Of a stretch of DNA of 64,000 nt, positions 2,697 to 42,993 are shown piece after piece. Positions within the stretch are counted from its first letter, which is position 1, and each line of letters opens with the position of its first letter. Under the pieces are notes generated by a model. The model saw only the letters and a list, made by a program, of their open reading frames with translations. It was not told the origin of the DNA and did no database searches. The translations under genes and the position numbers were made by a program. The stretch spans positions 72,058 to 136,057 of the forward strand of contig JAFAFE010000005.1 of NCBI GenBank assembly GCA_023423655.1, written 5' to 3'. The DNA is from Pseudomonadota bacterium (GTDB taxonomy: Bacteria; Pseudomonadota; Alphaproteobacteria; Sphingomonadales; Sphingomonadaceae).

Positions 2697-2799
2697 GAGA
2701 GACCTCCTGAAGAGGCCCTGGGTTTGTCCGGGTGTCCGTTCGGATGGATCCGCCCGGGGGCCTCACAAGGCCCCAAGCCCGCTTTTCTCTCACCGACAT

Positions 2800-3708: not shown

Positions 3709-3835
3709 GGGGGCATCTCCATCGTAACGTGCCTCCACCCGCGCAGCCTCCGCTCTGCGTCGCTGACGTTTCACTTTCCTACATCACATGTTCTATATAT
3801 GTTCTTTCCCGATTCGACCACAAAAGGATTCGGAA

Positions 3836-4495
3836 ATGAGACTGAAATGGGCAGTAGTTGCAGCGGCAACGACAGGATTTGGGTCCGTCCTCCCCGCTCA
3901 CGCGCAGGAACTTGAGCCCACTCAGATGACCGTCGCCTCGGAGTTGACGACCGATGGCTTCCGCGTTGCAGAAGGAACCGATGGCTTCCTTCTCGTCGAA
4001 CACGGCATTTGGAGAAAGCCTCCAACGGCCTCGTCCGAGCCGCCGGCTACCGATGCGGGTCGAACCTATCTGCCCTATCGCTATCCAAAGCCCCAAGGCA
4101 ACGCGCCATCGGGCTTCCGTCGGGCAAGCTACCTTCCTCATGTCTACGCTGCTGAGGCTCAATACTCGCTACCAAGCGGCCTTCTCGACGCTCTTGTATG
4201 GACGGAATCACGATATAATCCGATGGCCATCAGCAAGGCCGGGGCCGCAGGCTTGGGGCAATTGATGCCAAGGACAGCGCGGGACCTTGGCGTTTCAAAT
4301 CGCTTCGATCCCAAGGCGAACATCTTGGGTGCGGCCCGATACCTACGCCAGATGCTGGACAAGTTCGGGGTGGTTCATCTGGCCCTCGCTGCCTACAACG
4401 CAGGTCCAGGTGCCGTCGAGCGCGCAGGCGGTATTCCTCGCAATGGCGAGACGCCGGCCTATGTGCGTGAAGTGCTGCGCCATTGGCGTTTTTGA
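3836..4495 (+). CDS. Lytic transglycosylase (SLT domain), secreted
   Basis: ORF 3788..4495. ATG at 3836 follows AAGGA and gives the signal peptide [26 protein letters not shown] motifs: [29 protein letters not shown]. Confidence 0.85.
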
Positions 4496-4561
4496 ACGGG
4501 GGGTGTTGTGAGCACGGGTCGAATACGCGTCTCGTGAATTTTAAGCCGCGGTAGACGCGGG

Positions 4562-4705
4562 ATGTTCCTGACCACGACAGACGAAGTCGTCTGGATCATC
4601 GAGAGCGAAGAACCCGAATGCGAATTCGTCGGATCAGCGGTGATTGTCGAGGGGGTTGTCGCAGGTCGAGATCGTTTGCGCGCAGACTGGATTGGACCGG
4701 TCTGA
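4562..4705 (+). CDS. Possible 47-aa ORF, reminiscent of the C-terminal half of small ICE-borne DUF5818-type proteins
   Basis: Below the track cutoff; hand translation gives MFLTTTDEVVWIIESEEPECEFVGSAVIVEGVVAGRDRLRADWIGPV. It lies between the SLT gene and the integrase. There is an in-frame stop at 4535-4537 and no obvious RBS. Confidence 0.3.
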   Translation: MFLTTTDEVVWIIESEEPECEFVGSAVIVEGVVAGRDRLRADWIGPV

Positions 4706-4720
4706 TCGAAGCCATAGTTA

Positions 4721-5974
4721 TCAGCCTGCGCGCTTCCCTGCCTTCTTGATGTCGATCACCTTCCCGCCGCTCAGATAGTCAGCCCAGTCCTGCATCATCC
4801 GGCGCCGGGGAGCCAGGTATTCAGCGGCATTGTAAGCTCCACGCACGTCGTTTTTCTCCGAATGCGCGAGTTGTAGTTCCACCCAATCCTCATGGTATTT
4901 CCTGATCCACATGGGCGGCTTACCGAACTCGACCAACTGCTCATTGGCCCAAGTGCTCGCCAAGCCCCGGAAGCCGTGTACGGTTTGGCGGCTGTGGTAT
5001 CCGAGGCGATAGAGCGCGTAGATCATTGTGTTCTCTGAAAGCGGCTTGTTCGGGCCGTTGCCCGGGAAGAGAAACTCGCCAGGCGCTGCTGCTATCATGG
5101 ATTTCGCGATGTGCATTGCCTGCTGCGAGAGGGGTACCAAATGCTCTCGTCCCATCTTCATTCGCTCGGCTGGTATCCTCCAGACAGGTGATTTTCCGCC
5201 CAGGTCTTCAAACTCGGATTTGGCGGCGAAACGTAGTTCCTTGGTTCGAACCCAAGTCAGGAGCGCAAAGAGAACTGCGTCACGGGTGATCGCGGACCGT
5301 CGTTCGCCCTCTTCCTGGTAGGCATGCAGCTTCTCGATGAATGCGGGCAACTCGCTGAGCGGCAGCCGGCTCATATGCTTCACTCTTGGTCGCGGCTTTA
5401 GAGCCCCGCGCAAATGCGTCGTCGGATCGTTCGAGGCCAGACCACACGCGATTGCGAACTGGAAGACTTGCCCCACCCCTTGTTTCGCACGCCGGCTGAT
5501 ATCGAGCGCGCCTCTTGCTTCGATCTTGCGGATCGTTGCCAGGACGTCGGGTGCCGTGATTTCATTCACGAGTTTCTCGCCGATGACTGGAAAGACGTCC
5601 CTTTCCATGCGCGACCAGACGCGTTCGGCGTGCGCGGCATTCAACGCGCTTTTTCGATTTTCATGCCAGCGCTTTGCGACCTCGAAGAAGGTGGCTCCTT
5701 CCTGCGAGATCACTTCTCCCTTGGATTTCATTGGATCCTTGCCCTCGGCTAGCAACGCCTTTGCGGCTGTGCGCTTGTCGCGCGCGGCAGCTATCCCGAG
5801 ATCTGGGTAAGCGCCGAACGAGAGCAACTTCTCCTTGCCCGCGAAGCGGTACTTCATCCGCCATAACTTTGACCCGTTCGGCTGTACGAACAGGAATAAG
5901 CCCTCCCCGTCGGCCATCTTGTAGGCGCGCTCGCGTGGCTTGGAATTTCGGGCCTGAATCTCCGTGAGAGGCAT
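4721..5974 (-). CDS. int: Tyrosine-type site-specific integrase (P4-like, with N-terminal arm-binding domain)
   Basis: ORF 4721..6148. I prefer ATG 5974 (MPLTEIQARNSKP...), since the longer ORF reaches to within 5 nt of the tRNA 3' end. Catalytic-region motifs: HGFRGLASTW and LAHSEKNDVRGAYN. The gene sits directly beside the 3' end of a tRNA gene. Confidence 0.9.
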   Translation of the reverse strand: MPLTEIQARNSKPRERAYKMADGEGLFLFVQPNGSKLWRMKYRFAGKEKLLSFGAYPDLGIAAARDKRTAAKALLAEGKDPMKSKGEVISQEGATFFEVAKRWHENRKSALNAAHAERVWSRMERDVFPVIGEKLVNEITAPDVLATIRKIEARGALDISRRAKQGVGQVFQFAIACGLASNDPTTHLRGALKPRPRVKHMSRLPLSELPAFIEKLHAYQEEGERRSAITRDAVLFALLTWVRTKELRFAAKSEFEDLGGKSPVWRIPAERMKMGREHLVPLSQQAMHIAKSMIAAAPGEFLFPGNGPNKPLSENTMIYALYRLGYHSRQTVHGFRGLASTWANEQLVEFGKPPMWIRKYHEDWVELQLAHSEKNDVRGAYNAAEYLAPRRRMMQDWADYLSGGKVIDIKKAGKRAG

Positions 5975-6152
5975 TGGGGGTATCGCTCCTTTCCGATACT
6001 CCGCGAAAATACCCCCAAAATACCCCCACACCAAATCTGGCTGCATGTGGAAGACCATGGGCGCATGCGGACGCGAATCACCCGCAACCCTCTGCTTTTC
6101 TTTCGATTTTTGGAAAAATGCGGAAGCTAGTGGAAGCTTCCGGATCAAGGAA

Positions 6153-6229
6153 TGGTAGCGGAGGAGGGACTCGAACCCCCGACACGCGGATTATGATTCC
6201 GCTGCTCTAACCGGCTGAGCTACTCCGCC
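6153..6229 (-). tRNA. tRNA with CAU anticodon: elongator tRNA-Met, or lysidine-type tRNA-Ile2 (the sequence alone cannot tell them apart)
   Basis: The reverse complement folds by hand into a 77-nt cloverleaf: acceptor GGCGGAG/CTCCGCT, D arm GCTC...GAGC, anticodon stem GCGGA/TCCGC with loop ATCATAA, T arm GGGGG-TTCGAGT-CCCTC, and encoded CCA. It lacks the initiator features (three G-C pairs in the anticodon stem, a 1-72 mismatch). Confidence 0.9.
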
Positions 6230-6704: not shown

Positions 6705-8690
6705 TCAGCCCTTTTGATTGGCTGCGCGCGCTTGGTCGAAGCGTTGGCGGTAGGTGCCAGTATCGGGCGCAAGGATGACCGCTTTTTCCAGCAAATCGAG
6801 CGAGGTCCGGGAAGGCCCGCTCAAACGATGCAGCGCCCAGCCGAGATTATTGGTAATCGCGGCATTGGCGGGCTGGATCGCATAAGCATGGCGGAAATAG
6901 GTGGTGGCCTTGGCAAGATTGCCCTTCCCCTGCCAGGCGCTCCCCAATTCATTCATTAGCAGCGCATCGCGATTGCCCGTTCGCGCACGCACCATTTCAA
7001 GCGCCGCGACCGCGCGGTTCCAATCTTGGCTCTTGAGATAAAGCGACCCCAAAATGCGTGTTGCCGGAATATTTTCCGGATTGCGGCTGGTGAAATCGCC
7101 CAGCGTGTGGAGCGCGGCGGCATCATTGCCGCTTTCGCTATACGCATTGGCAAGGCGCAACGCTCCCACTTCTCCGAAGCGCAAACGCACCGCTTGTTGA
7201 TAGGCGGTGACCGCCGCAGCGGCGCGTTTTCCGGCAAGCTCGGTATCGCCGACCAGCATATGCGCGTCGGGAACGCCGGGGTTGGCGCGCTGTAACCGCT
7301 GGGCAGCGACAAGTGCGCTGCCGATGCGCCCACTATTCACTTCGGAGCGGATATAGGGGATGACAAGCTGTGCATTGAGCGGATTGCGCGTAGCGTCTGC
7401 AGCCAATAATTCCGGCGCGGTGGCGGGGGCAAAGGCAATCGCATCGCCTTTGCGGAACTGGCTCGCGCGGGTCAGCAGCGGCACGGCCTCTCCTATGTCC
7501 CCTTCCTCCTCCAGCGCCGACGCTGCCAGCATGATCGACCAGCTATCGGCATCGGGCCGGGTATAGATGGGGGCGATAATGTGCCAGGCATCGTCGGCAT
7601 CGCCTGCATTCAGGCTCGCCAGCGCCAAGATGCGCCGCGCGGTGAAATTATTGGGCTGGAGGTCGAGCAATTTGGTCGCGCGGTTTACCGCGACATTATG
7701 GTTGCCCAATTCCTCCTCGACCACCGCGCTCACGAGCAGGAAGGCGGGGAGGTTTTCCAGTTGGTCACCGATTTTGAACAGGATGCGCTGGGCCAGATCA
7801 TAATTTTCCGCACGCGCCGCCAAAATTGCCTGCAACAACCGCGCGCGCGCATTATTTTTGTCGATGGCCAGCACCCGCCTTGTGGTCTTGAGCATATCGG
7901 TGGAGCGCCCGACATCGCCCAATGTTGCGGCATATTCGACGAGTGCGCCGACATGGTCGGGCTTGACCTTGAGGACGCGCTCATACCAGCCGAGCGCAGG
8001 CAGCAGCCCCTGATTTTCACGCACCAGTCCCGCCTTGATGAGCGTTGCATCCATATTGTTGCGGTTGAGCTGGAGCGCGCGGTCAATCGCCTGCATCGCG
8101 CCGCCGACATCGGCATTGGTATAGCGGAAACGTGAAATATCCGCCCAAAGCTGGCTGTTATCAGGGTCGAGCCGGATCGATTCATCAAAGGCCGCGCGCG
8201 CGCCGTCAAAATTGCCCAAATCCATCGCAGCATTGCCCGCAATCCGTTCGGCATAGGCTTTATAACGGTCGGGCACTGGGCCTGCCTGTAATTCGGCGAG
8301 CGCCCGCGCCGGCTCGCCTTGCAGCCATACCGCATGGGCAAGCTGCACGCGGGTTGCAGTGTCGGACAGGCCAAGTTCGCGCGCGCGGCGGATTTCCGCT
8401 TCCGCGCCAATCCCGTTCCCCATCGCCACCAATATCCGCGCTTGCGCAAGCCGTGCATCGGGCCAATCCGGATCGGCCTCTATCGCTTTGGCCATTGCGT
8501 TATGCGCATCGCGCAAATTTTGCGCGCGTTCATAGGCTATCGCGGTTTTGAAAGCCCCGCGCGCGACTTCACTATCTGCCGCCCAAGCCTTGCCCGCCCA
8601 GCCCGTTGCAGCAACCGCCAACGCAAGCGCAGCCACGGCAAAGCCTGTAATTTTATTACTATATTTCAAAGGCCTGTCATTGAAGATCAT
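6705..8690 (-). CDS. Secreted TPR-repeat protein (PrsT-like by position downstream of prsK-prsR)
   Basis: ORF 6705..8810. The plausible starts are ATG 8690 or TTG 8669, both giving the signal peptide ...ITGFAVAALALAVAATGWAGKAWA. TPR-like A/L/Y-rich repeats run throughout. It is the last gene of the prsK-prsR string. Confidence 0.7.
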   Translation of the reverse strand: MIFNDRPLKYSNKITGFAVAALALAVAATGWAGKAWAADSEVARGAFKTAIAYERAQNLRDAHNAMAKAIEADPDWPDARLAQARILVAMGNGIGAEAEIRRARELGLSDTATRVQLAHAVWLQGEPARALAELQAGPVPDRYKAYAERIAGNAAMDLGNFDGARAAFDESIRLDPDNSQLWADISRFRYTNADVGGAMQAIDRALQLNRNNMDATLIKAGLVRENQGLLPALGWYERVLKVKPDHVGALVEYAATLGDVGRSTDMLKTTRRVLAIDKNNARARLLQAILAARAENYDLAQRILFKIGDQLENLPAFLLVSAVVEEELGNHNVAVNRATKLLDLQPNNFTARRILALASLNAGDADDAWHIIAPIYTRPDADSWSIMLAASALEEEGDIGEAVPLLTRASQFRKGDAIAFAPATAPELLAADATRNPLNAQLVIPYIRSEVNSGRIGSALVAAQRLQRANPGVPDAHMLVGDTELAGKRAAAAVTAYQQAVRLRFGEVGALRLANAYSESGNDAAALHTLGDFTSRNPENIPATRILGSLYLKSQDWNRAVAALEMVRARTGNRDALLMNELGSAWQGKGNLAKATTYFRHAYAIQPANAAITNNLGWALHRLSGPSRTSLDLLEKAVILAPDTGTYRQRFDQARAANQKG

Positions 8691-10077
8691 AGAGCTTGAG
8701 CAGATCATAAAGCGTCGGGCGGCTGATGCCCAAAAGCTTGGCCGCGCCGGAAATATTGCCTTCGGTGCGAGCGAGCGCGCGGCGGATCGCCTTGCGGTCA
8801 GCGGCTTCACGCACGGCTTTGAGGTTCAACACCGCCGCCGCATCATCTTCGGCTTCGTCCAAATCCATATCGGCCGCCGAAACCAGCTTGGTATCGGCCA
8901 TGATGACCGCGCGCTTGATGCGGTTTTCCAGCTCGCGCACATTGCCGGGCCAGGGATAAGCGTCAATCATCGCGAGCGCGTCGGGCGCAAGGCCTTTGAC
9001 TTGCGGGTTCATGTCGGGCGCAAAACGCTGGACGAAATGTTTGGCGAGCAGTCCCGCATCGCCTGGCCGTTCGGCGAGCGTCGGGATTTTCACGACAATT
9101 TCGGCGAGGCGGTAATAAAGATCCTCGCGGAACGTGCCCTCGGCAATCATCGCGTCAAGGTCGCGGTGGGTCGCGCATACGACGCGGGTGTCGACCGCAA
9201 TCGGCTTGCGCCCGCCAATCCGCTCGATCACCCGCTCTTGCAAAAAGCGCAGGAGTTTTACCTGCAAAGGCAGCGGAATATCGCCCACTTCGTCAAGGAA
9301 CAAGGTGCCGCCTTGCGCCATTTCGATCTTGCCTTCGGTGGTTTTGACCGCGCCGGTAAACGCACCTTTTTCATGCCCGAATAATTCGCTTTCGAGCAGA
9401 TTTTCGGGGATGGCCGCACAGTTGATCGCGATAAAAGCGCCATCGCGGCGGTTGCTGGCATCATGGAGGCCGTGCGCGAGCAATTCCTTGCCCGTGCCGC
9501 TCGCCCCCAACAGCATGACCGACACATTATTGGTCGCAACCCGTTCGATGGTGCGCGATACTTTGAGCATTTCGGGTGCGCCGGTAATCATCCGCCCCAG
9601 TACCTGCTGGCTTTCACCGACCGCAGAGGCCAAGCGGATATTTTCCATCTCCAGCGCGCGCACATGGAAAGCGCGGCGCACGATGAGGCCCAGCTCGTCA
9701 ATGTCGATGGGCTTTTGATAAAAATCATAAGCGCCGCCCGAAATCGCCCGCAACGCACTTTCGCGCGCACCATGACCCGAAGCGACAATGACCTTGGTGT
9801 CGGGCTTTAGCGCCAATATTTCATCGAGCGTGCGAAAGCCTTCAGTTGTGCCGTCGGGGTCCGGCGGCAAGCCAAGGTCAAGCGTCACCACATCCGGCTC
9901 TTCGGCGCGCAGCAGGTTGATCGCTTCTTCGCGGGTTCCGGCGGTGAGGATCTGATAATCCTCATAAGCCCAGCGCAACTGTTTCTGCAGCCCCGGATCA
10001 TCTTCGACGATGAGCAATTTGGGCAGCGGTTCGGTCCCGTTCCGGCTTTTGGCAAGGTCTGCGGTCTTGGTCGTCAT
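8677..10077 (-). CDS. prsR: Sigma-54-dependent response regulator (NtrC/AtoC class; PEP-CTERM-box regulator PrsR type)
   Basis: Receiver domain (LLIVEDDPGL, VVTLDLGLPPD), AAA+ domain (GASGTGKELLA, the sigma-54 contact motif ESELFGHEKGAFTGA) and C-terminal Fis-type HTH (GNISGAAKLLGISRPTLYDLLK). Its start overlaps the kinase stop as ATGA (10074-10077). Confidence 0.85.
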   Translation of the reverse strand: MTTKTADLAKSRNGTEPLPKLLIVEDDPGLQKQLRWAYEDYQILTAGTREEAINLLRAEEPDVVTLDLGLPPDPDGTTEGFRTLDEILALKPDTKVIVASGHGARESALRAISGGAYDFYQKPIDIDELGLIVRRAFHVRALEMENIRLASAVGESQQVLGRMITGAPEMLKVSRTIERVATNNVSVMLLGASGTGKELLAHGLHDASNRRDGAFIAINCAAIPENLLESELFGHEKGAFTGAVKTTEGKIEMAQGGTLFLDEVGDIPLPLQVKLLRFLQERVIERIGGRKPIAVDTRVVCATHRDLDAMIAEGTFREDLYYRLAEIVVKIPTLAERPGDAGLLAKHFVQRFAPDMNPQVKGLAPDALAMIDAYPWPGNVRELENRIKRAVIMADTKLVSAADMDLDEAEDDAAAVLNLKAVREAADRKAIRRALARTEGNISGAAKLLGISRPTLYDLLKLYDLQ

Positions 10078-12191
10078 GCGGCGTCCTGCGTATCAAAATT
10101 ATCGGGCATAAGAAGCGATTGGTCATCGGCAGCGGGCGGGAGGGTGAGGCGGAACAGGCTGCCTTCCCCGACGCGGCTTTCAACGCCAAGGCTTCCGCCC
10201 ATGGCAGCGGCGAGCGCGCGCGCTTCAAATGCGCCAATGCCAAAGCCGCCTTCCTTGGTGGAGTGGAATGGTTTGAACAATTCGTTGCGGATGAAGTCGG
10301 GCGTCATCCCTGTGCCGCGATCCATCACCTCGATAATCGCATCCTCATTATGGCGGCGCACGATAATCTGGATAGGTTCGCTCGCCGGACTGGCTTCAAT
10401 CGCATTTTGCGTGAGATGGAGCAGGATTTGCTCCAGCCGCGCCGGATCGACCATCGCCTTAACCTCGTCCTGCACGCCGACCACAATCGGATGCTGACCG
10501 CGCTTGGTGCGCGCCAATTCTTCGGCAAACGCGCCCAGAGCCACCGGCTGCGGCTCGTCGGGCCGCGCGCGGTTGTGCTGCGAAAGGCGCGCGAGCAGGT
10601 CATTCATCCGGCTCACCGAAAATTGCAGCGTTTCAATCATATCGGCGCGGAATTCGGGATTGTCGGCATGGCGTTCGGCATTGCGCGCAACAAGGCTCAA
10701 CTGGCTCACCAGATTTTTAATATCGTGGATGATGAAGGCGAAGCGGCGGTTAAATTCTTCAAAGCGCCGCGCTTCGGATAGAGCCTCCTGCCCCTGCGAT
10801 TCCGCAAGATAGCTTGCCACTTGCCGCCCGACGATGCGCAGCAGGTCGAAATCTTCCCAATCGAGCGTGCGGTCGAGCGCGGGCCGTTCGAGCAGAACCA
10901 TCCCCGCCACCCGGTCAAAATGGACGAGCGGGACACCGACCCAGACGCGGCGCTCTTCGATCATCCATACGGGCATTGCGGCGCGTTCGGCATCATCGCT
11001 GGGCGCTTTGCGCAGCGCATCAAAGTCGATGATGCGCGCATTATCCTGTAAATGGAGATAGGTTTTAATATCGGCGGCGACCGGCGGCACGTCGATATTC
11101 TTGGCCTTCCACCGGCTTTCCAGCACCAGCGCGCCGCCTTCATCGGGGAGCAATAGCAGGCCGCCGGGCGATTCGGTAATATCCGCAATCGCCTTGATAA
11201 TGCGCGCGTTGAACGGCTCCGAACTGTCTCCCGGCTTTCCGATGGTCCGTGTAAAGCGCATCCATTCATTGCGGTAATCATAGCGGTGCTGGAAGAAATG
11301 TTTGGACACTTGCACCCGCAACATCGCGCGGAAACGCGACGATGGCAGGAACACGACGATGAAGGCAAAGGCGATGCCGAGAAACGCCTTTTGCATGATC
11401 GCGCCATAATCGCCGCCAATCATGCGCAGCGCTGCTGCAATCAGCACCATGCCCATCAAATAAGCGCCGATGGCCATCAGTGACAGCGTCTGGAAGGTCA
11501 CGGTGCGCGACAAGCGGATCGTCGCATTGCCGCGCTTGACCAGCACCGCCATGAACAAAGGCAACAGCAACAGGCTGAGCGCCGGGCGCAGCTCGATTAG
11601 CGCATTGGCCGGCTCGCCCGCCAGATAGGTGATGGTATAAAGATTAAGGTCATAGCCCCACATCGCGGTCAGCGCGGCCATATAGGGCGCGACCAGATGG
11701 CGGGAATCGGGCGCGGTCACGGTGTAAAGATTGTGGACCAGCACCAAGCTGCCAATCGTCATCACCATTTGCAGGACAAGCCGCGCGGTACCGATCAGTT
11801 CGGGCGACCGGATTGCCACAATATTGCCGACTATCGCCAAATCGAGCATCGCAATCAGAAAAGCGATGATGGCGAGCGCGGCATAAACCGACAACAGGCC
11901 CCGGCTTTGCAATTCTATTTTGGCGCGGCGCAGCAGCACATACATGAAGCCCAGCCAAGCGGTATTCCTGATATTCTCCAATATCAGGGCTTCATAACCG
12001 GTCGCGCCACCGAACGCTGAAGCCCATAGCCATAGCGATGTAACCGCAAGCGCCGCCGCCAGCACCGCCCGCTGGGTCGCCAAACCCCGCAACGGGTGCA
12101 GCACCCACAAAAACAGCGCACAAAAGCCAGAGGCTGCAACAATTGCGCCCCAATGCTCTATCGCTGTCAAAAGATGATCCGCCCCCTGCAT
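10074..12191 (-). CDS. prsK: Polytopic membrane sensor histidine kinase (PrsK type)
   Basis: About 300 aa of hydrophobic helices, a central GAF-like region, an H-box (FIIHDIKNLVSQL) and an ATPase region (LTQNAIEA, DRGTGM, GGFGIGAFEARALA). It is paired with a sigma-54 response regulator and follows a sugar-transferase gene. Confidence 0.8.
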   Translation of the reverse strand: MQGADHLLTAIEHWGAIVAASGFCALFLWVLHPLRGLATQRAVLAAALAVTSLWLWASAFGGATGYEALILENIRNTAWLGFMYVLLRRAKIELQSRGLLSVYAALAIIAFLIAMLDLAIVGNIVAIRSPELIGTARLVLQMVMTIGSLVLVHNLYTVTAPDSRHLVAPYMAALTAMWGYDLNLYTITYLAGEPANALIELRPALSLLLLPLFMAVLVKRGNATIRLSRTVTFQTLSLMAIGAYLMGMVLIAAALRMIGGDYGAIMQKAFLGIAFAFIVVFLPSSRFRAMLRVQVSKHFFQHRYDYRNEWMRFTRTIGKPGDSSEPFNARIIKAIADITESPGGLLLLPDEGGALVLESRWKAKNIDVPPVAADIKTYLHLQDNARIIDFDALRKAPSDDAERAAMPVWMIEERRVWVGVPLVHFDRVAGMVLLERPALDRTLDWEDFDLLRIVGRQVASYLAESQGQEALSEARRFEEFNRRFAFIIHDIKNLVSQLSLVARNAERHADNPEFRADMIETLQFSVSRMNDLLARLSQHNRARPDEPQPVALGAFAEELARTKRGQHPIVVGVQDEVKAMVDPARLEQILLHLTQNAIEASPASEPIQIIVRRHNEDAIIEVMDRGTGMTPDFIRNELFKPFHSTKEGGFGIGAFEARALAAAMGGSLGVESRVGEGSLFRLTLPPAADDQSLLMPDNFDTQDAA

Positions 12192-12193
12192 GA

Positions 12194-13582
12194 TCAGCGC
12201 GCCCCGTCCGGCCAGAGCAATACGCGCAATGTCTGCAAAATAATCAGCAGGTCCAGAAACGGCGTGTAATTTTTGGCATAATAAAGATCATATTCCAGCT
12301 TCTGCCGCGCATCGTCGATGGACGCACCATAAGGATAGTTGATCTGCGCCCAGCCAGTGAGGCCGGGTTTTACCATATGGCGTTCGGCATAATAGCGGAT
12401 TTGCTGTTCCAGTTCGGACACAAATTCGGGCCGTTCGGGGCGCGGCCCGACAAAGCTCATTTCGCCTTTCAACACGCACCAGATTTGCGGCAACTCGTCG
12501 ATCCGCAGCTTGCGGATGACCTGTCCCACACGGGTCACGCGTGGGTCATGTTTGGCCGCCCAGATCGCCTTGCCGCCCGCTTCGGCATCGGTACGCATCG
12601 AGCGTAATTTGATAATATTATAGGGGACGCCATATAGCCCCACGCGCTCTTGCCGGTAGAAAGCAGGCCCCTTGCTGTCGAGCTTCACAATGATCGCAAA
12701 CAGGATGATGACCGGAAAGGTCAGCGCAAGCACGATAAGGCTCGCGACAATGTCGAAGATACGCTTGGCAAAGGTCGAAATCCGTTGCCCTGCGGTAAAA
12801 CCGTCCGAAAAAATCAGCCAGCTCGGATTGACGGTATCGAGGTCGACGCGGCCGGTTTCGCGTTCAAGAAAGCTGGAAATTTCATTGACATGCACACCGG
12901 TTGTCTTGATCCGCAACAGGTCGGAGAGTGGCAGGGCATTGCGCCTTTCTTCGAGCGCCAGCACGACCTCGCTCGCCCCCAAGCGCACGACATGGTCGGA
13001 CAGGCTGTCAATCGCATCGCGGCGCACCGCTTCGCCGACTATTTGTTCGCCATCGGTCATCGCGACATAGCCGACCACCGAAAAGCCACTCTCTTTGCGC
13101 TTCGACAATGTTTTGATGCGGTCGGCGCGCGCGCCCGCACCCAGCACCAAAATCCGCCGCCGGAAGGATTCGCCGCCAAGCAAACGCCCCAGCAGCAAAC
13201 GCACGAGCAGCAGCGCAATAATCGCAAAGACCATCGCATAGAGCGAGTTTGACCGCCACAAGGTAGTCCCCGGCAAAATGAAGTTCATCACCGACAGGAA
13301 GATGACGCCCAGGGAGATAGCGGTAAGCAGGCGCGCCGTTGCAAAGCGCATCGACTGGAAGGCTTCGGCGCTATACACCCCCACCGCAATCATCGCGAGT
13401 TGCAGGGCCAGCGCGAAACTCAGCAAAGGCGCAACACGCTCGCTGACCGCTCCGACGCTCATGCCAATCTGCTGCGCGCGCACAATCCACGCCAATTCCC
13501 CCGCGCCGATCAGCGCCAGAAAATCGAGCAAGGCGAGCAGCAATACGCCATGCGGAATATAATGTTTAAACAGCCGGAACAT
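12194..13582 (-). CDS. Exopolysaccharide-priming polyprenyl glycosylphosphotransferase (bacterial sugar transferase family)
   Basis: N-terminal TM helices and a C-terminal catalytic motif: [12 protein letters not shown]...[41 protein letters not shown]. Confidence 0.85.
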
Positions 13583-13764
13583 ATTTCAGCGGACCCGTTA
13601 TCCTTTTTTCCTGTCGTTCAATCTTCGCCTTTGCGCACGTCCTAACACTGACCCATGTCAATTTCGTAAAGATATCCGACAGTGGTAAAGTGTCGATTGC
13701 TTTTACAAAAGCATTAATCAATTTATGGTTAAAGGTCAGCATCCAGGCTGTAACCGGAAAGACA

Positions 13765-16227: not shown

Positions 16228-16247
16228 CCCGCCACCTTACACCATCT

Positions 16248-16265
16248 TTGTAAAGATATTTACAA
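16248..16265. promoter_or_regulatory. Inverted repeat TTGTAAA-N4-TTTACAA in the regulator/isocitrate-lyase divergent region (candidate operator)
   Basis: Read directly from the sequence. A further TTTACAA lies at 16312-16318. The region is AT-rich and lies between the divergent starts at 16227 and 16395. Confidence 0.4.
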
Positions 16266-16394
16266 TATTACATTCTTATATGCACATTATCTGCCAATTC
16301 CACTAAATATTTTTACAAAAATGGCGCACAGCGAAAAGCGCAGGGCTACACCAACACCAAGACAAACAGATTCTTTGGTGAAGGGGCCAAAATC

Positions 16395-20559: not shown

Positions 20560-21180
20560 TCAGCCTTCGTCGGCAAAATAGACTTTGACGCCCGCATCCA
20601 CGCCGGCGGATTTGAGCGGGGCGCTAAAGCTGCGTTTGACGATAGCGCGCACCGCCGCCTTGGCTTGCTCCATCGGGCCTTTGGCGCGGGCTTGTTCCAA
20701 AAGTTGGGCTTCGGCGCTGCGGCGGCTGGCGCGGTCGATGCCGCCCTCTTTTTTGGCGAGCGGAACGGGCTTGCCCCCGCCGCGCCAGCGCGCAATCGCG
20801 TCATGGACAATATCCGGCCCGTTCACGCGCAATTTCGGGAGCTTTATCTCCAGCTCCTTGGTGGTTGCATTCCATTCAAGATCGGAAGCGCGCACGCCTT
20901 CGACATCGACTTCATAACGCACCGTGCCGGGGACAAGGAGCAATTGCGGCGACCCCGCCGACGATACGGTTTGCGGCACCACCGCGACATAGCGCGCGAT
21001 GAAGGGGGTCAGCACTTGCTGTTCTTTCAGCGTTTCGAGGCTGGCCTGAACGATCATTTGCGGGTCGCCATCAGGGGTCGCAGCACGGCGGCTATTCCAT
21101 CCGGCGAGGAGACCGATAAGGATGAGGGCGGCGATGCCCCATCCCCATAAGCGGTTGCCGCCGGGCAATGCACCGCTCAT
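20560..21180 (-). CDS. DUF4230-like membrane-anchored protein
   Basis: ORF 20560..21195. ATG 21180 overlaps the upstream stop as ATGA. It has a single N-terminal TM helix (WGWGIAALILIGLLAGW). Confidence 0.6.
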   Translation of the reverse strand: MSGALPGGNRLWGWGIAALILIGLLAGWNSRRAATPDGDPQMIVQASLETLKEQQVLTPFIARYVAVVPQTVSSAGSPQLLLVPGTVRYEVDVEGVRASDLEWNATTKELEIKLPKLRVNGPDIVHDAIARWRGGGKPVPLAKKEGGIDRASRRSAEAQLLEQARAKGPMEQAKAAVRAIVKRSFSAPLKSAGVDAGVKVYFADEG

Positions 21181-22052
21181 CCGGTGAGGCTCCACACGCC
21201 ATCGGCATCTTCGGTAACGCGGCCGCGGATCTGCAATTCGAGCAAATGGGCAAGCACCGATCGGCCCGCCGCTCCGTGCAGGCGCGGGTCGAGGCCTTTA
21301 TACATTTCGGCGACAAAATCGTCGATGCGTTGCGGCCCGCGTTCGAGCATCCGCACAATCTGCCCTTCGCGCTGCTTGCGGTGGCCCATCATACCGCGCG
21401 CGAGCCGTTGCGGTTTATCCACCGGCGCGCCGTGGGCGGGATAATAGATGCGGTCCTGAGGCCGGTCGATCAGCTTTTGGAGGCTATCCATATAGGCCGC
21501 CATATCGCCATCGGGCGGGGAAATGACGCTGGTGGACCAGCCCATAATATGGTCGCCGGTAAACAGTGCGCCGCTTTCCTCCAGCGCATAGCAAAGATGG
21601 TTCGATGTATGCCCCGGTGTCGCTACCGCCGTCAGCGTCCAGCCTTCGCCGCGCACAATGTCGCCATCGGCCATGACCGCATCGGCGCGATAGGTCCGGT
21701 CGAACGATGCGTCAGCGCGCGGGCCGCTATCGTCGAGGACGAGGGGCGCACAGCCGATGATCGGCGCACTGGTTTTGGCCTGAAGCGGAACTGCCGCCGG
21801 ACTATGGTCGCGGTGCGTGTGGGTGCACATGATCGCAATGATGTCGCGCGCGCCTACCGCTTGGATAAGGGCTTCCAGATGGTCGGCATCGTCGGGGCCG
21901 GGGTCAATCACCGCAACATCCTTGCCGCCACCGACAATATAGGTTTGTGTGCCGGTATAGGTGTAAGGCGACGGATTGCCCGCAAGCAATCGCTGCACCA
22001 AAGGCTCAACCTGTTCGATCAGGCCGACAGGACCGGGGGGCGGAATATTCAT
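21177..22052 (-). CDS. MBL-fold metallo-hydrolase
   Basis: HTHRDHSPAA (HxHxDH) plus downstream PGHTSNH and FTGDH motifs. Confidence 0.85.
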   Translation of the reverse strand: MNIPPPGPVGLIEQVEPLVQRLLAGNPSPYTYTGTQTYIVGGGKDVAVIDPGPDDADHLEALIQAVGARDIIAIMCTHTHRDHSPAAVPLQAKTSAPIIGCAPLVLDDSGPRADASFDRTYRADAVMADGDIVRGEGWTLTAVATPGHTSNHLCYALEESGALFTGDHIMGWSTSVISPPDGDMAAYMDSLQKLIDRPQDRIYYPAHGAPVDKPQRLARGMMGHRKQREGQIVRMLERGPQRIDDFVAEMYKGLDPRLHGAAGRSVLAHLLELQIRGRVTEDADGVWSLTG

Positions 22053-22266
22053 GACAGGCCTTGTGGCAAATCCCGCGCAGCTTTTGAAGGATTTGTTGGA
22101 TCGGGTTCCCGTCTTTGTGCGCGGCGATTTTAGGATGCTTGTTTAGGCGCGGGGAAAAAGCAACCGGCGGCCCGCGCCTTATTCTGTCGGGATTATTTAC
22201 AAAGCCGCCCCGCGTTCATCTTTTGCTTACCATCATAAGCGGCAGAAACCGGCGCTTGATCTAAAG

Positions 22267-22282
22267 TGGCACGCGCGGTGCA
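22267..22282 (+). promoter_or_regulatory. Sigma-54 (RpoN) promoter A: TGGCACGCGCGGTGCA
   Basis: Matches TGGCACG-N4-TTGCA at 15/16 positions with correct GG/GC spacing. It is intergenic, and no plus-strand ORF of at least 60 aa lies downstream. Confidence 0.7.
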
Positions 22283-22292
22283 TAGTTTCCGA

Positions 22293-22466
22293 TATTCCTG
22301 AGTGTTTCGCTCCAGAGAGGCGGGTTCGGACCGGATTGGTCCCTGATCCGACCCGCCCTCACCCGGCATCCCGACAATTTGAAGCCACAGCCCGCCCGCG
22401 TTGATACGCGCGGACATATGCGCTTGCCGGAGATTACGCCCATCCCGTTGATTGTCGGGCATTTTT
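22293..22466 (+). ncRNA. Candidate sigma-54-dependent small RNA A
   Basis: The predicted start is ~12 nt after the -12 element. It has a conserved 5' segment and an imperfect ~13-bp hairpin (22317-22360). A possible weak terminator is CCCG-N8-CGGG followed by CATTTTT at 22445-22466. Only a 22-codon ORF is present. Confidence 0.35.
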
Positions 22467-22518
22467 ACACCCAAGCGGCGCGTTAATAAACCGCACACCA
22501 TTAGGTAGCGCAAAAATC

Positions 22519-22545
22519 CGCGCGTGCCGCAAATTGGCACGCGCG
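22519..22545 (-). terminator. Intrinsic terminator for the minus-strand gene 22671..23177; it overlaps the -24 element of promoter B
   Basis: CGCGCGTGCC-N7-GGCACGCGCG forms a 10-bp stem, followed on the minus strand by GATTTTTG. Confidence 0.5.
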
Positions 22546-22550
22546 CTGCA
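22535..22550 (+). promoter_or_regulatory. Sigma-54 (RpoN) promoter B: TGGCACGCGCGCTGCA
   Basis: Same spacing and near-identical sequence to promoter A. It points toward the 3' end of a convergent gene. Confidence 0.65.
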
Positions 22551-22560
22551 TAGATTAAAT

Positions 22561-22634
22561 TGTTCCTAAGTGTCTCGCTCTAGAGAGAGCGGGCCAGTCC
22601 CGGTCTGGTCCCCGGTCTGGCCCGCCCTCACCCG
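22561..22634 (+). ncRNA. Candidate sigma-54-dependent small RNA B (3' end undefined; could read antisense into 22671..23177)
   Basis: The 5' block is conserved with copy A. The hairpin at 22585-22629 has an upper stem of different sequence that is still complementary (CCAG/CTGG here, TTCGGA/TCCGA in copy A). Confidence 0.3.
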
Positions 22635-22670
22635 CTTCTTCAAAGTTATGAAAAAGCTGGCGCTATTGCC

Positions 22671-23177
22671 TCATTGTGCCATTTCATTGGCAAAAGCCGC
22701 ATAGACAGCGCGCCGTGTTTCCGAGTCAGGCAAGGCTCTATATGCCATATAATGGTCGCGGGCGCGTCCAAGCTGCGCGTGACGCGCTTTCTCGTCCAAT
22801 GCTTCAGCCGAACAATTAATAACCTTGACCAGCCGCGTCGTCTTTGCGGTGCGGATGGTGCGTTCCAACAATAAGCTACTCACATCGCCATTGCTGACAC
22901 ATTGCGACAGCACATCCTGCAATGCGAGACCGGACACGGCATTTTGCGTCAGCACCATATAGTCGCGCATAATCCCGTTCGTGGTGTCATAATTGACCAA
23001 CCGCACGGCCTCATAAGCATCCCGGCCTTTGGAAAGTGTCGGGACATAAGGCATCGCAGAAATATTGGGCTCAGGCATCGGCGTGAACGGGCTGGCCAGA
23101 AACGAGGGAGGCTCAGGCTGCGCGTGGGCGGCCGTCGCAAGACAAAGAACAGCAACCGCAAGGACAATGCTTTTCAT
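22671..23177 (-). CDS. Secreted hypothetical protein
   Basis: Signal peptide MKSIVLAVAVLCLATAAHA. I recognise no family. Confidence 0.6.
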   Translation of the reverse strand: MKSIVLAVAVLCLATAAHAQPEPPSFLASPFTPMPEPNISAMPYVPTLSKGRDAYEAVRLVNYDTTNGIMRDYMVLTQNAVSGLALQDVLSQCVSNGDVSSLLLERTIRTAKTTRLVKVINCSAEALDEKARHAQLGRARDHYMAYRALPDSETRRAVYAAFANEMAQ

Positions 23178-40720: not shown

Positions 40721-42952
40721 CTAGAAGGAATAATCCAAGCGGACGCCGTAGGTCCTCGGCTGCGCGAGCACCTGCGAATCTGCCGTTCCCGACGTCGTCA
40801 GCGTGAGGCTATATTGTTCATTGAATAGATTCTCGCCCCATAGCGAGATGCGGAAATCGGCCGGGCCGGGTTTCCAGCCGATTTCGGCGTTAGCAAGCAA
40901 TTTCGAGGGTTCGCGGAGACGGTTGAACGTATCCCAATAGCTGTGGCCGGAATAATAGAGGTTTCCGGACAGCGAAATCTCGCCATCGCCTACGGGCGCA
41001 GTATAATTTCCGCCGACATTCGCCGTGAAAAACGGCGTGTTATTGACGCGATTGCCGCTGACGTCGCAGATCACCGTTCGGTTGCCGCCGATCGTCGGAC
41101 CTGTTCCCATGACGCACGCAGTCGCGGGGACCGGGTTTACCGTGGTGGCGGGGATCGTCACCTGTGCATTGGTGAAGTTCTTGAACTTCCCGCTGAGCGC
41201 CGAGACGCCGGTGCGCAACGTTAGCTGCGAGCTCGGCTTGATTACGGCTTCGAACTCGCCGCCATAGATGCGCGCGCTGCCGGCATTCTGCAGGATCGAC
41301 AGCAGGGTCACGGGATCGCGCGCTTGGTTCTGCATATCCTTATAGTCGGTGTAGTAGCCGGCCAGATTTATGCGGAGCCACGGCGTGATGTCGCTCTTCA
41401 GGCCAATCTCATATTGTTTGACATTCTCCGGCTGGACCGGGCGCAAAGCGGCTTGGTTCGTCGTCGCCGGGGCGAACAGCCCGCTTTTGAAGGCTTCGCC
41501 ATATTTGGCATAGAGGTTTAGCGAGGACGACGGCTGGTATTGCAGCGTAAGGCTTGGGGTGAATTTGCTGAACGTGGCCTTGGCGGCCAGCGTGCCGCCC
41601 GGCAGCGGCCGCGTCACGACCGACTCCAACCGACGCTTTTCCTTCGTGTATCGCCCCCCGGCGATGACAGAAAATGTGTCGGTGAGCGCGTAGGTCGCCT
41701 GGAGATAGGCCGCATAGCTATCGGTGTAGGAATGCGGATCGATATCGGTCGATGGCGCTCCGTTCACTCGCACTTGGTAGAAGGGATAATAAGAGTGATC
41801 GTGGAAATAGACGAGACCGCCGACCAGCTGGAGCGGCCCGTCCCATTCGGACGTGAAATAGGTCTCATGATAGAGATTCTTCGAATTCATCGTGTAATCG
41901 ATCGTCGCGAGTTCGGCGCGTGTGCCGTCCGAATCTGCCAGAATGTCGAGCGTGTTGTACTGATAGGCGGTGAGCGACGTGACTGTCACTGGGTCGAGCC
42001 GGAGAATGGCTGTTACCGTCCCGGTATATTGCTCAAGATTGTTGCGTGGGTCATAAGAGAGCGACGACGTGTAAGGCGCGATCCCATAGGGATTGCCGAC
42101 GACGCGTCGACCGGTCGTATTCTGTTCGAACGGCCGATAAGCCTCGCCCGTCGACTCCTTATTGCGCGTATAGCTGCCTGCGAGACGCAATTCGAAAGTC
42201 CCGCCTTGATTGATGTAGAGCTTCGCACGCGTCGAAAAATCGTCGCGAGAGCCAATCTTGTCGTCACGGCCGAAGTCGTAAATATAGCCATCGTCGCGTG
42301 TGATCACGAAGGCAACGCTCCCAGCGACCTTCTCCGAGCCGACCGAGGCATAGCCCTTGGCGACAACTTCGTTGAAACGTCCGTAGCTCAGACTGAGCGA
42401 CCCGGTGAGATCCTGCGAGGGCGTCTTGGTGATGACGTTGACTGCACCGCCGGTAGCGTTGCGCCCGAAGAGCGCACCCTGCGGCCCTTTGAGGACCTCG
42501 ATCCGCTCGATGTCGTTGAACTGAAAATTCTGCCCGCCGAGGAACGACTGGTAGGCACCGTCGACATAGATCGGCACGGTCGATTCATCGCCCGCGGCGA
42601 CGCCGCGAACACCGATCCCGCGAATGGTCGGCTGGGGCGAATAGACATATTGCGTGAAGTTGAGACCCGGCGTGACCTGCGTCAGTTCGTTCGTGCTGGA
42701 AATTCCGGCGGCCGCGAGCATACCGCTATCGAACGCGGTGATCGCCACGGGAACGTCCTGGAGTCGCTCTTCGCGACGGTTCGCAGTCACGATGATGTCG
42801 CCGACGCCAGCTTCTTCCGTTTGAGCCTGCTCGGGGGCCGGTGCTGAATCCTGGGCGAAAGCCGGTGCCGCCGAGACAAGCGCGCCCACTGCAACGCAGC
42901 AACCGAGCATCAGATTGATCGTGCGGCTCTTTCCTTGAGTCATGTCAGTCAT
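40721..42952 (-). CDS. TonB-dependent outer-membrane receptor
   Basis: ATG 42952 follows GGAAGGGGAG. Signal peptide, plug region (GDIIVTANRREERLQDVPVAITAF) and C-terminal barrel ending in ...YGVRLDYSF. Confidence 0.9.
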   Translation of the reverse strand: MTDMTQGKSRTINLMLGCCVAVGALVSAAPAFAQDSAPAPEQAQTEEAGVGDIIVTANRREERLQDVPVAITAFDSGMLAAAGISSTNELTQVTPGLNFTQYVYSPQPTIRGIGVRGVAAGDESTVPIYVDGAYQSFLGGQNFQFNDIERIEVLKGPQGALFGRNATGGAVNVITKTPSQDLTGSLSLSYGRFNEVVAKGYASVGSEKVAGSVAFVITRDDGYIYDFGRDDKIGSRDDFSTRAKLYINQGGTFELRLAGSYTRNKESTGEAYRPFEQNTTGRRVVGNPYGIAPYTSSLSYDPRNNLEQYTGTVTAILRLDPVTVTSLTAYQYNTLDILADSDGTRAELATIDYTMNSKNLYHETYFTSEWDGPLQLVGGLVYFHDHSYYPFYQVRVNGAPSTDIDPHSYTDSYAAYLQATYALTDTFSVIAGGRYTKEKRRLESVVTRPLPGGTLAAKATFSKFTPSLTLQYQPSSSLNLYAKYGEAFKSGLFAPATTNQAALRPVQPENVKQYEIGLKSDITPWLRINLAGYYTDYKDMQNQARDPVTLLSILQNAGSARIYGGEFEAVIKPSSQLTLRTGVSALSGKFKNFTNAQVTIPATTVNPVPATACVMGTGPTIGGNRTVICDVSGNRVNNTPFFTANVGGNYTAPVGDGEISLSGNLYYSGHSYWDTFNRLREPSKLLANAEIGWKPGPADFRISLWGENLFNEQYSLTLTTSGTADSQVLAQPRTYGVRLDYSF

Positions 42953-42993
42953 ATCTACTCCCCTTCCCAATTTTTTGAATCTCAGTTCAATAT

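Follow-up and report, generated by a model that had tools for sequence, protein, structure and literature searches.

Background

The described systems that come closest to the locus reported here, an intergenic region in a 64,000-nt stretch of Sphingomonadales DNA (the window; contig JAFAFE010000005.1 of assembly GCA_023423655.1) that probably holds two tandem small RNA (sRNA) genes, include sets of sRNAs with promoters of their own. The Qrr1-5 RNAs of Vibrio are paralogous sRNAs of about 100 nt or less, each transcribed from its own sigma-54 promoter under the phosphorylated NtrC-family regulator LuxO as part of a collective-behaviour and biofilm programme; they end in a Rho-independent terminator and depend on Hfq. 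GlmY and GlmZ of the Enterobacteriaceae, which act in cell-envelope sugar metabolism, are homologous sRNAs of about 150-200 nt with sigma-54 promoters and upstream activator sites (for GlrR/QseF); they do not lie in tandem and form a hierarchy of paralogues in which one is a decoy. In Alphaproteobacteria, AbcR1/2 and CcsR1-4 are tandem short sRNAs, again with their own promoters, whose C/U-rich stretches are thought to pair with ribosome-binding sites, CcsR1-4 by means of C-rich anti-Shine-Dalgarno loops. A sigma-54-dependent sRNA in this class would, to our knowledge, be a rare case.

In activated-sludge bacteria the membrane kinase PrsK, the response regulator PrsR and sigma-54 are required for floc formation. 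PrsK/PrsR and sigma-54 are found across the Proteobacteria that have the PEP-CTERM/exosortase system, and their regulon has so far been described as protein genes only. The signal associated with it, the PEP-CTERM box, consists of a 17-nt motif ending in TTTACA (motif 1), a spacer of 62.8 +/- 10.6 nt (range 32-92) and a 17-nt sigma-54 motif with GG at -24 and GC at -12 (Haft 2006, PMC1569441). The same study found that the phylogenetic profile of the box is an exact match to PrsK, PrsR and PrsT, that the distance from the box to a downstream PEP-CTERM start codon is normally 71 +/- 38 nt, and that a few boxes lie upstream of other genes. In Desulfovibrio vulgaris the PrsR orthologue, DVUA0057, bound five of five predicted PEP-CTERM targets in DNA affinity purification-chip (DAP-chip) experiments, its mapped targets being genes for PEP-CTERM proteins and no sRNA; another sigma-54 response regulator, DVU0679, has an sRNA, Dv_sRNA2, as a target, apparently its main one (Rajeev et al. 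2011, PMC3333781). A PEP-CTERM gene of Aquincola is RpoN-dependent, with a mapped start site behind TGGCAC/CTGCTT (PMC9850573). Our literature search returned no paper on a PrsR-dependent or PEP-CTERM-box-driven sRNA.

Results

Promoter architecture of the tandem units

An initial reading of the window (hereafter the first-pass annotation) had proposed two sigma-54 promoters, each followed by a structured segment without an open reading frame (ORF). On re-reading the sequence, the two promoter elements, TGGCACGCGCGGTGCA and TGGCACGCGCGCTGCA, were found exactly as reported and at the reported positions (Table 1), and so were the details of the repeat: the 19-mer TGGCACGCGCG[G/C]TGCATAG agrees at 18 of 19 positions between the copies, the 9-nt spacers that follow (TTTCCGATA and ATTAAATTG) share their length and differ in sequence, and in both copies TTCCT[G/A]AGTGT[T/C]TCGCTC[C/T]AGAGAG leads into a long GC-rich hairpin and then into CCCGCCCTCACCCG. 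The two-copy segment had been thought to start at 22205; its copies stand, with the correction that the repeats begin about 20 nt earlier, at 22185 and 22453. The region thus comprises two units of about 180 nt (22185-22365 and 22453-22634), direct repeats on the plus strand that are 82% identical in an alignment running from about 22181 and 22449, respectively, to CACCCG and including about 85 nt upstream of the promoters. The intergenic segment that holds them is flanked by two minus-strand genes. The 64 kb contain three matches to the pattern TGGCA-N7-TGCA, where 0.6 would be expected.

We aligned 12 distinct units from the window and its relatives over a span that starts 130 nt before the promoter and ends 90 nt after the RNA. 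Only four islands are conserved: motif 1, which reads TGTCGG-N5-TTTACA; a second element about 30 bp beyond it; the sigma-54 element TGGCA-N7-TGCA, in which GG and GC are invariant and the spacer is free; and the RNA body, from TTCC through CACCCG. Nothing is alignable upstream of the first island or downstream of CACCCG. Motif 1 is 17 nt long and ends exactly 65 nt before TGGCA in all 12 units, its 3' end being TTTACA, TTGACA or ATTACA. The only exception to the invariant GG/GC across lineages is at the -12 element of one locus, L055, which reads TTGAA. The second element is palindromic in some copies (TTAACC-N4-GGTTAA) and may be a weaker second PrsR site or the site of a DNA-bending protein; IHF was considered as such a protein and set aside, the element showing no fit by eye to the IHF consensus WATCAANNNNTTR.

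These features closely parallel the published signal. Measured against the text description of Haft 2006 (PMC1569441), both promoters have a 17-nt motif 1 ending in TTTACA, a spacer of 65 nt where about 63 nt is typical, and a sigma-54 element, TGGCAC-N5-(G/C)TGCA, with the -24 GG and -12 GC of motif 2. The site is intergenic, as published ones are, and the window also encodes PrsK, PrsR and a PrsT-like protein (the last scoring below its family cut-off) beside an epsB2-type glycosyltransferase. A downstream PEP-CTERM gene is missing: no such C-terminus occurs in any frame of the 64-kb window. Published sites precede PEP-CTERM genes or, occasionally, other genes; here a structured, ORF-less RNA would follow. 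As Haft 2006 reports a few boxes before other genes, a promoter of this kind can still count as a PEP-CTERM box, and on their sequence both promoters are best classified as such, their departure from published sites being that a predicted RNA rather than a PEP-CTERM gene lies downstream.

Searching the window for TGTCGGNNNNNNTTACA with at most one mismatch gave five matches against 0.41 expected, a number that none of 100 shuffled sequences reached. Two are the RNA promoters and two form an inverted pair upstream of epsB2, the first gene of the prs operon. The fifth, TGTCGGCGGAAATTATA (one mismatch; 41002-41018, minus strand), lies inside a TonB-dependent receptor gene (40721-42997, minus strand) and is probably due to chance.

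Three further observations concern similar signals. A conserved 16-bp palindrome, TGTAAA-N4-TTTACA, lies in the aceA-ramB intergenic region (16228-16394), between genes for isocitrate lyase and a RamB/ScfR-like regulator, and recurs in the relatives L101 (14959-15223) and L103 (18053-18214); it has the TTTACA half-site in common with motif 1, with different spacing, and is probably a RamB-type operator. In the same region, a sigma-54-like match before the ramB-like gene (TGGCAGATAATGTGCA, 16281-16296, minus strand) was discarded as probably fortuitous, because it is not conserved in L103. A near-consensus sigma-54 promoter, TGGCAGCTTTGTTGCA, is present in Sphingobium baderi (CP013264.1; 697-712 of the extracted locus L115), about 70 nt upstream of a 59-codon ORF and about 6 kb from the prs operon, with no clear motif 1 at the 65-nt spacing.

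Structure, strand and coding potential of the RNA body

A covariance model, R1, was built from 12 copies of the RNA body; its fold consists of a 5-bp hairpin 1 and a long hairpin of 17 bp in two helices. R1 recovers 27 matches, 23 of them distinct, at 78-98 bits. Among the 23 distinct sequences, 96.2% of the cells at paired positions hold standard pairs, compared with 42-53% when the partners are slid by one to three columns, and changes on both sides of a pair occur at seven pairs (35 cells). The covariation score is 0.217 against a shuffled mean of 0.101, and none of 500 shuffles reaches the observed values, a contrast that overstates significance for reasons given in the Discussion. The 12-sequence set gives the same picture, and RNAalifold, to which no structure was supplied, returned the same fold with eight compensatory pairs. 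The first-pass annotation had noticed that the upper stem differs in sequence between copies A and B and stays complementary; this is so, and the stem also covaries in the larger alignment. Copy B by itself has a fold z-score of -3.7.

Variation is concentrated in the middle and upper stem, which appears as UUCGG/CCGA, CCAG/CUGG, UAGC/GCUA and UUCAAU/AUUGA. Little or no variation is seen in the 5' UUCCU, the lower stem, the UGGUC core of the loop or the 3' CCGCCCUCACCCG, and 13 nucleotides at the 3' side are invariant; such constancy suggests sequence-specific contacts. The C-rich CCGCCCUCACCCG closes the long hairpin with its 5' part and leaves its last five or so nucleotides single-stranded. 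The RNA runs in the direction of the promoters, as its U-G and G-U pairs (columns 13-19 and 51-62) fit the plus strand only; the opposite strand would have mismatches in their place. An alternative pairing of CGCUC, with GAG(A/C)G downstream of it and not with GAGUG upstream, was rejected: only L055, with an insertion of 4 nt, could form the hairpin properly, and the loop would have 2 nt in the other copies. The window's copy B reads GAGAGAGCGGGC at 22585-22592 where L105, L106, L107, L109 and L112 have GAGAGAGGCGGGC; it lacks 1 nt at the base of the long hairpin, a deletion that brings the R1 score down from about 80-85 bits to the value in Table 1. Rfam 15 at gathering threshold matched only a tRNA in the window, and a permissive scan of 22050-22750 gave only matches with E of at least 0.44 and scores far below threshold.

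The RNA body appears to be non-coding. The reading frames of the copies have nothing in common, since indels break every frame; no AUG lies inside the conserved body, and gene callers place no gene in the RNA intergenic region of any relative. The statement that no plus-strand ORF of at least 60 aa follows either promoter is right for copy A and has to be amended for copy B, which is followed by a 66-codon ORF with a TTG start (22674-22874, plus strand); we treat this ORF as spurious because it is antisense to the 168-aa gene, itself called in relatives. The 22-codon ORF reported after copy A is real and overlaps the upstream motif of copy B. A concern raised at the outset, that relatives might reveal the segment as the leader of a protein gene missing here, was not borne out: behind their tandem pair, or behind the one copy of L055, there is no conserved ORF. 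Two other ORFs were dismissed. One of 154 codons that starts at the RNA 5' end in L055 has a low-complexity translation and no PEP-CTERM tail, and an antisense ORF at 22193-22540 is never called as a gene in relatives.

As in sRNAs of the type driven by sigma-54 and an enhancer-binding protein, each RNA body is thus predicted to have its own promoter with an upstream activator site, contains no ORF and has a conserved, covarying structure.

The prs operon and its motif-1 sites

Among the ORFs scanned, PrsR is the only sigma-54 activator in the window, as the first-pass annotation had stated. It is encoded about 12 kb from the RNA pair and keeps an intact GAFTGA sigma-54 contact motif. Its orthologues in Rhizorhapis and Sphingobium baderi are about 80% identical to it, and the prsT-like gene occupies the same operon position as in Rhizorhapis and Sphingobium. 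On the contigs that carry the RNA pair, PrsR orthologues were present in the L002 and L003/L050 lineages (L055, L095 and L099 fell outside this check).

The inverted motif-1 sites before epsB2 are 9 nt apart, in the block TGTAAAAGCAATCGACA-CTTTACCAC-TGTCGGATATCTTTACG. This block (13665-13707) is near-invariant in the 90% and 79% relatives (about 8590-8640 of L102 and about 20090-20140 of L103), in contrast to the intergenic DNA around it, which has diverged. The 21-kb prs loci of Rhizorhapis and Sphingobium baderi each have a single close match to motif 1, again upstream of epsB2 (6410-6455 of L114 and 6445-6485 of L115), with a weaker second site beside the first, as judged by eye. This recurrence at prs operons is the best evidence in our analysis for motif 1 as the putative PrsR site in this order. 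As far as sequence can tell, the suspected link of the RNAs to PrsR is now much stronger, because both promoters have PEP-CTERM-box architecture and the same motif marks the prs operon.

A PrsR that is 99% identical to that of the window (WP_337828261.1) is encoded on a 3.07-Mb contig deposited as "Pseudonocardia sp. TMWB2A". This label looks wrong, or the record does not come from an actinomycete, because the flanking proteins of the window and the closest PrsR homologues belong to Sphingomonadales.

Distribution in related lineages

The proteins flanking the RNA pair have best named matches of about 70% identity in Sphingomonas, Novosphingobium and Sphingobium, closer ones being on metagenome contigs; contigs of relatives were accordingly fetched through homologues of the MBL-fold protein and exact Grx4 matches. 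The same RNA units are found in about six related, uncultured Sphingomonadales lineages, which supply the 23 distinct sequences. A tandem pair occupies the same intergenic region in L001 and L002 (MBL-fold protein about 90% identical), L095 (89%), L099 (81%) and L003 (79%; the same sequence as locus L050 of the genome collection), and in L098 (77%) an RNA is present there with a copy cut by the contig end. Several near-identical strains (L104-L113, including GCA_023426105.1) also have the pair. In L055, another alphaproteobacterial metagenome-assembled genome, a single copy adjoins a BlaI/BlaR1 gene pair. The locus of L005 (71%) has no RNA and a different upstream neighbour, 134 nt away.

A scan of 185,579 species genomes for the exact invariant 3' pattern TGGTC-N11-CCGCCCTCACCCG gave 59 loci, of which L050 and L055 are real and the rest chance matches in GC-rich genomes; in the genome of OH_SFB_50 this pattern hits the tandem pair only. 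All 30 loci returned by a scan of JGI metagenomes for TTCCTGAGTGT-N40-70-CCCTCACCC were chance matches, and BLASTN against PLSDB plasmids found nothing. R1 detected no third copy in the 64-kb window and none beyond the tandem pair in the other loci on which it was run; the 21-kb prs regions of Rhizorhapis and Sphingobium baderi gave no match at all. Because the genome and metagenome scans need an exact match and missed even the window's own species, the known distribution is a lower bound. The family looks narrow, the lineages known so far to have it being few and mostly uncultured.

Table 1. Features of the window discussed in the text (positions in the window; bit scores against the cut-off of the model named)
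Feature	Position	Strand	Details
Motif 1 of PEP-CTERM box, copy A	22185-22201	+	TGTCGGGATTATTTACA; predicted PrsR site
Second conserved upstream element, copy A	22213-22233	+	CGTTCATCTTTTGCTTACCAT; about 30 bp from motif 1
Sigma-54 promoter A	22267-22282	+	-24 TGGCAC, -12 GTGCA
Predicted sRNA A	22293-22365	+	About 73 nt; R1 96.9 bits; 5' UUCCUGAG; hairpin 1 GAGUG/CGCUC; long hairpin 2 with apical loop AUUGGUCC; 3' CCCUCACCCG
Motif 1 of PEP-CTERM box, copy B	22453-22469	+	TGTCGGGCATTTTTACA
Second conserved upstream element, copy B	22481-22501	+	Degenerate
Sigma-54 promoter B	22535-22550	+	-24 TGGCAC, -12 CTGCA
Predicted sRNA B	22561-22634	+	About 74 nt; paralogue of A; R1 77.9 bits; covarying upper stem, loop UCUGGUCC
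MBL-fold hydrolase gene	21177-22052	-	Divergent from copy A
168-aa gene	22671-23177	-	Convergent with copy B; no Pfam or NCBIfam match
prsT-like TPR protein	6705-8810	-	TIGR02917, 237 bits (below cut-off 312)
prsR, PEP-CTERM-box response regulator, sigma-54 activator	8677-10077	-	TIGR02915, 674.5 bits (cut-off 502.6)
prsK, XrtA/PEP-CTERM system histidine kinase	10074-12191	-	TIGR02916, 510 bits (cut-off 300)
epsB2-type XrtA/PEP-CTERM glycosyltransferase, first prs operon gene	12194-13582	-	TIGR03013, 507 bits (cut-off 393)
Two inverted motif-1 sites	13665-13707		TGTCGGATATCTTTACG (-) and TGTCGATTGCTTTTACA (+); upstream of epsB2-prsK-prsR-prsT
AAA_34 protein	1215-2696	-	Integrative element
Toprim/DUF7146 primase-like protein	2800-3774	-	Integrative element
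SLT transglycosylase	3788-4495	+	Integrative element
Tyrosine integrase	4721-6148	-	Integrative element

Neighbouring features

Beyond the two genes that flank the RNA pair lie grx4, bolA, a gene for an ATPase-inhibitor zeta subunit and cysS. The 168-aa gene is patchy in close relatives, being present in L001, L104, L106 and L099 and absent from L003, L095, L105 and L109. One arm of a 10-bp perfect inverted repeat at 22519-22545 (CGCGCGTGCC/GGCACGCGCG) coincides with the -24 region of promoter B. Read on the minus strand, where GATTTTTGCG comes after it, the repeat has the score of a terminator and may serve the convergent 168-aa gene as such. The repeat is present in the near-identical strains L104, L105 and L107 and not in L001, L095 or L099. 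At the far end of the prs operon, an integrative element (1215-6229) beside a tRNA gene (6156-6229, minus strand) abuts prsT.

Discussion

We interpret the intergenic region as two paralogous sRNA genes, dependent on PrsK/PrsR and sigma-54 and each served by its own PEP-CTERM-box promoter, a reading to which we would give roughly two chances in three. Under this proposal the membrane kinase PrsK would sense a signal and phosphorylate PrsR, which would bind the 17-nt TGTCGG-N5-TTTACA 65 bp upstream of the -24 element and may also bind the second conserved element about 30 bp further downstream. The GAFTGA loop of PrsR would then contact sigma-54 RNA polymerase and bring about promoter opening, with transcription starting near 22293 for copy A and near 22561 for copy B, start sites placed by the position of the -12 elements. 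The predicted transcript, about 73 nt long if it ends where conservation stops, would be non-coding and would present a free 5' UUCCU(G/A)AG, the 5-bp hairpin, the long imperfect hairpin with its UGGUC loop, and the 3' CCGCCCUCACCCG. Acting in trans, the two RNAs could add post-transcriptional control to the PrsK/PrsR regulon, which is concerned with exopolysaccharide, PEP-CTERM/exosortase and floc or biofilm formation. Most likely they would do so by base pairing between purine-rich ribosome-binding regions and their own invariant stretches rich in pyrimidines, for which the 5' UUCCU and the 3' CCCUCACCC are candidates.

Several points weigh against this interpretation. Transcription of both RNAs is a prediction from DNA sequence, and motif 1 was compared with the text of Haft 2006 rather than with the published logo. 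No sigma-54 promoter follows the motif-1 pair at epsB2, so the action of PrsR there would have to differ; the pair suggests autoregulation in another mode, for example repression at a sigma-70 promoter. The evidence for structure has its own limits: the lower eight pairs of the long hairpin and most of hairpin 1 are invariant and hence uninformative, and the shuffle control overstates significance because pairs were counted on an alignment that had been fitted to the model, from sequences related to one another as paralogues and orthologues. More telling than the shuffles are the slid controls and the fold that RNAalifold reached independently. Neither copy is followed on the plus strand by an intrinsic (Rho-independent) terminator, and the RNAs lack the 3' module usual for Hfq: what comes after the hairpin is rich in C, poor in G and without a U tract (a TTTT occurs in one of the 12 distinct units, copy B of L099), which leaves the 3' end and the length uncertain. 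Possible determinants of the 3' end are Rho, the hairpin by itself and trimming as far as the hairpin. The L096/L097 lineage (MBL-fold protein 80% identical) lacks the RNA pair at this locus. It keeps the order grx4, 161-aa gene, MBL-fold gene, with only 128 nt between the last two (L096 2873-3001; L097 2747-2875), and is a case of natural loss or of a pair never gained. Finally, scans within the window found no target. For 52 window ORFs, the duplex energies between their start regions and the conserved single-stranded segments showed no convincing outlier, and whole-RNA duplexes with the epsB2, prsK, prsR and MBL-fold leaders of three lineages were computed with duplexfold, which is blind to intramolecular structure. 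Also dropped was a possible pairing of 6-8 nt between the 5' UUCCUG and CAGGAA in the epsB2 leader of the window, as it is not conserved in L102.

The missing terminator bears on two other explanations. Without a U tract the RNAs have no typical Hfq 3' module, and they might, under control of PrsR and sigma-54, bind or titrate a protein in the manner of CrcZ or GlmY, with the UGGUC loop and CCGCCCUCACCCG as recognition sites. The 13 invariant 3'-side nucleotides and the invariant loop core do exceed what structure needs, and two paralogues recall the GlmY/GlmZ pair; yet no repeated protein-binding motif is present, neither multiple GGA nor A-rich repeats, and the free pyrimidine-rich 5' end is typical of seed regions, so that we consider such a role unlikely, though worth keeping in mind. 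Unterminated transcripts might instead act in cis, as antisense to the 168-aa gene and grx4-bolA or by reading from A into B, with the hairpin serving only for stability. The pair does point at the 3' end of the 168-aa gene or grx4 in all syntenic lineages, but the RNAs are unchanged in L003, L095, L105 and L109, where the 168-aa gene is absent, in L055 the flank divergent from the RNA carries the BlaI/BlaR1 pair, and conservation is confined to the first 73 nt or so; we hold cis action to be very improbable. Least credible of all, with hardly any weight in our judgement, is that the units are repetitive DNA, a palindrome of the REP or MITE-like sort, or that they encode a tiny peptide. There are indeed two copies of a long GC-rich inverted repeat, and short ORFs can be drawn, such as one of 14 codons with a GTG start in copy A; against this stand the absence of any copy beyond the tandem pair in the loci run with R1 and in the pattern scan of the OH_SFB_50 genome, the fixed distance of every copy behind a sigma-54 promoter, the strand-specific G-U pairs and the want of a reading frame common to the copies.

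Two further alternatives turn on the promoters. The RNAs could be sigma-54-dependent and answer to another enhancer-binding protein, such as NtrC or NtrX: the window shows only 64 kb of a genome that probably encodes further sigma-54 activators, PrsR is 12 kb away rather than adjacent, and the motif was matched to a verbal description. Nevertheless, motif 1 agrees with the PEP-CTERM box in its length, its TTTACA end and its 65-nt spacing, it also marks the prs operon of three close lineages as well as that of Rhizorhapis and Sphingobium, and no NtrC-type palindrome (TGCACC-N5-GGTGCA) was seen by eye in the unit alignment, no dedicated search having been made; we regard a different activator as quite unlikely. 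Slightly less probable still is that the units are relics of PEP-CTERM genes, boxes with leaders of about 73 nt left behind after loss of the coding region and giving RNA without function. The usual distance from box to start codon (71 +/- 38 nt; PMC1569441) is close to the length of the conserved segment and the window has no PEP-CTERM ORF, as a relic would predict. A decaying relic would not, however, be expected to keep intact promoters in both tandem copies or to persist without an ORF in about six lineages, down to 77-81% identity of the MBL-fold protein, and in L055; moreover, the RNA body is constrained, with compensatory changes, where the sequence directly downstream cannot be aligned.

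If the region does encode PrsR-dependent sRNAs, they form a new family of an already known regulatory kind. The regulatory logic resembles that of the Qrr RNAs and of GlmY/GlmZ. With Qrr there is no homology as judged by Rfam, and the present pair differs from it in lacking a U tract and in its regulator and bacterial class. GlmY and GlmZ are likewise unrelated by Rfam, and nothing here points to a processing-adaptor or decoy mechanism. AbcR and CcsR have sigma-70 or RpoH-type promoters and terminators, and no Rfam family was matched here. Dv_sRNA2, too, was recognised by a binding site and a sigma-54 promoter without an ORF, under a different regulator (PMC3333781).

Conclusions

It is possible, rather than probable, that PrsK/PrsR, known so far only for the predicted activation of genes for PEP-CTERM surface proteins, have a dedicated riboregulatory output in this clade of Sphingomonadales, with the 5' UUCCU and 3' CCGCCCUCACCCG of the sRNA pair reprogramming translation of exopolysaccharide, exosortase or biofilm functions. 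The practical value of the finding is limited by its few, mostly uncultured lineages. If the interpretation is right, a post-transcriptional layer would be added to the PrsK/PrsR regulon, and two defined promoters with two short RNAs would offer a handle on what the system controls beyond PEP-CTERM proteins. The PEP-CTERM box would then signal the regulon in general instead of marking PEP-CTERM proteins, and more sRNA families could lie unnoticed behind orphan boxes of this kind in other Proteobacteria.

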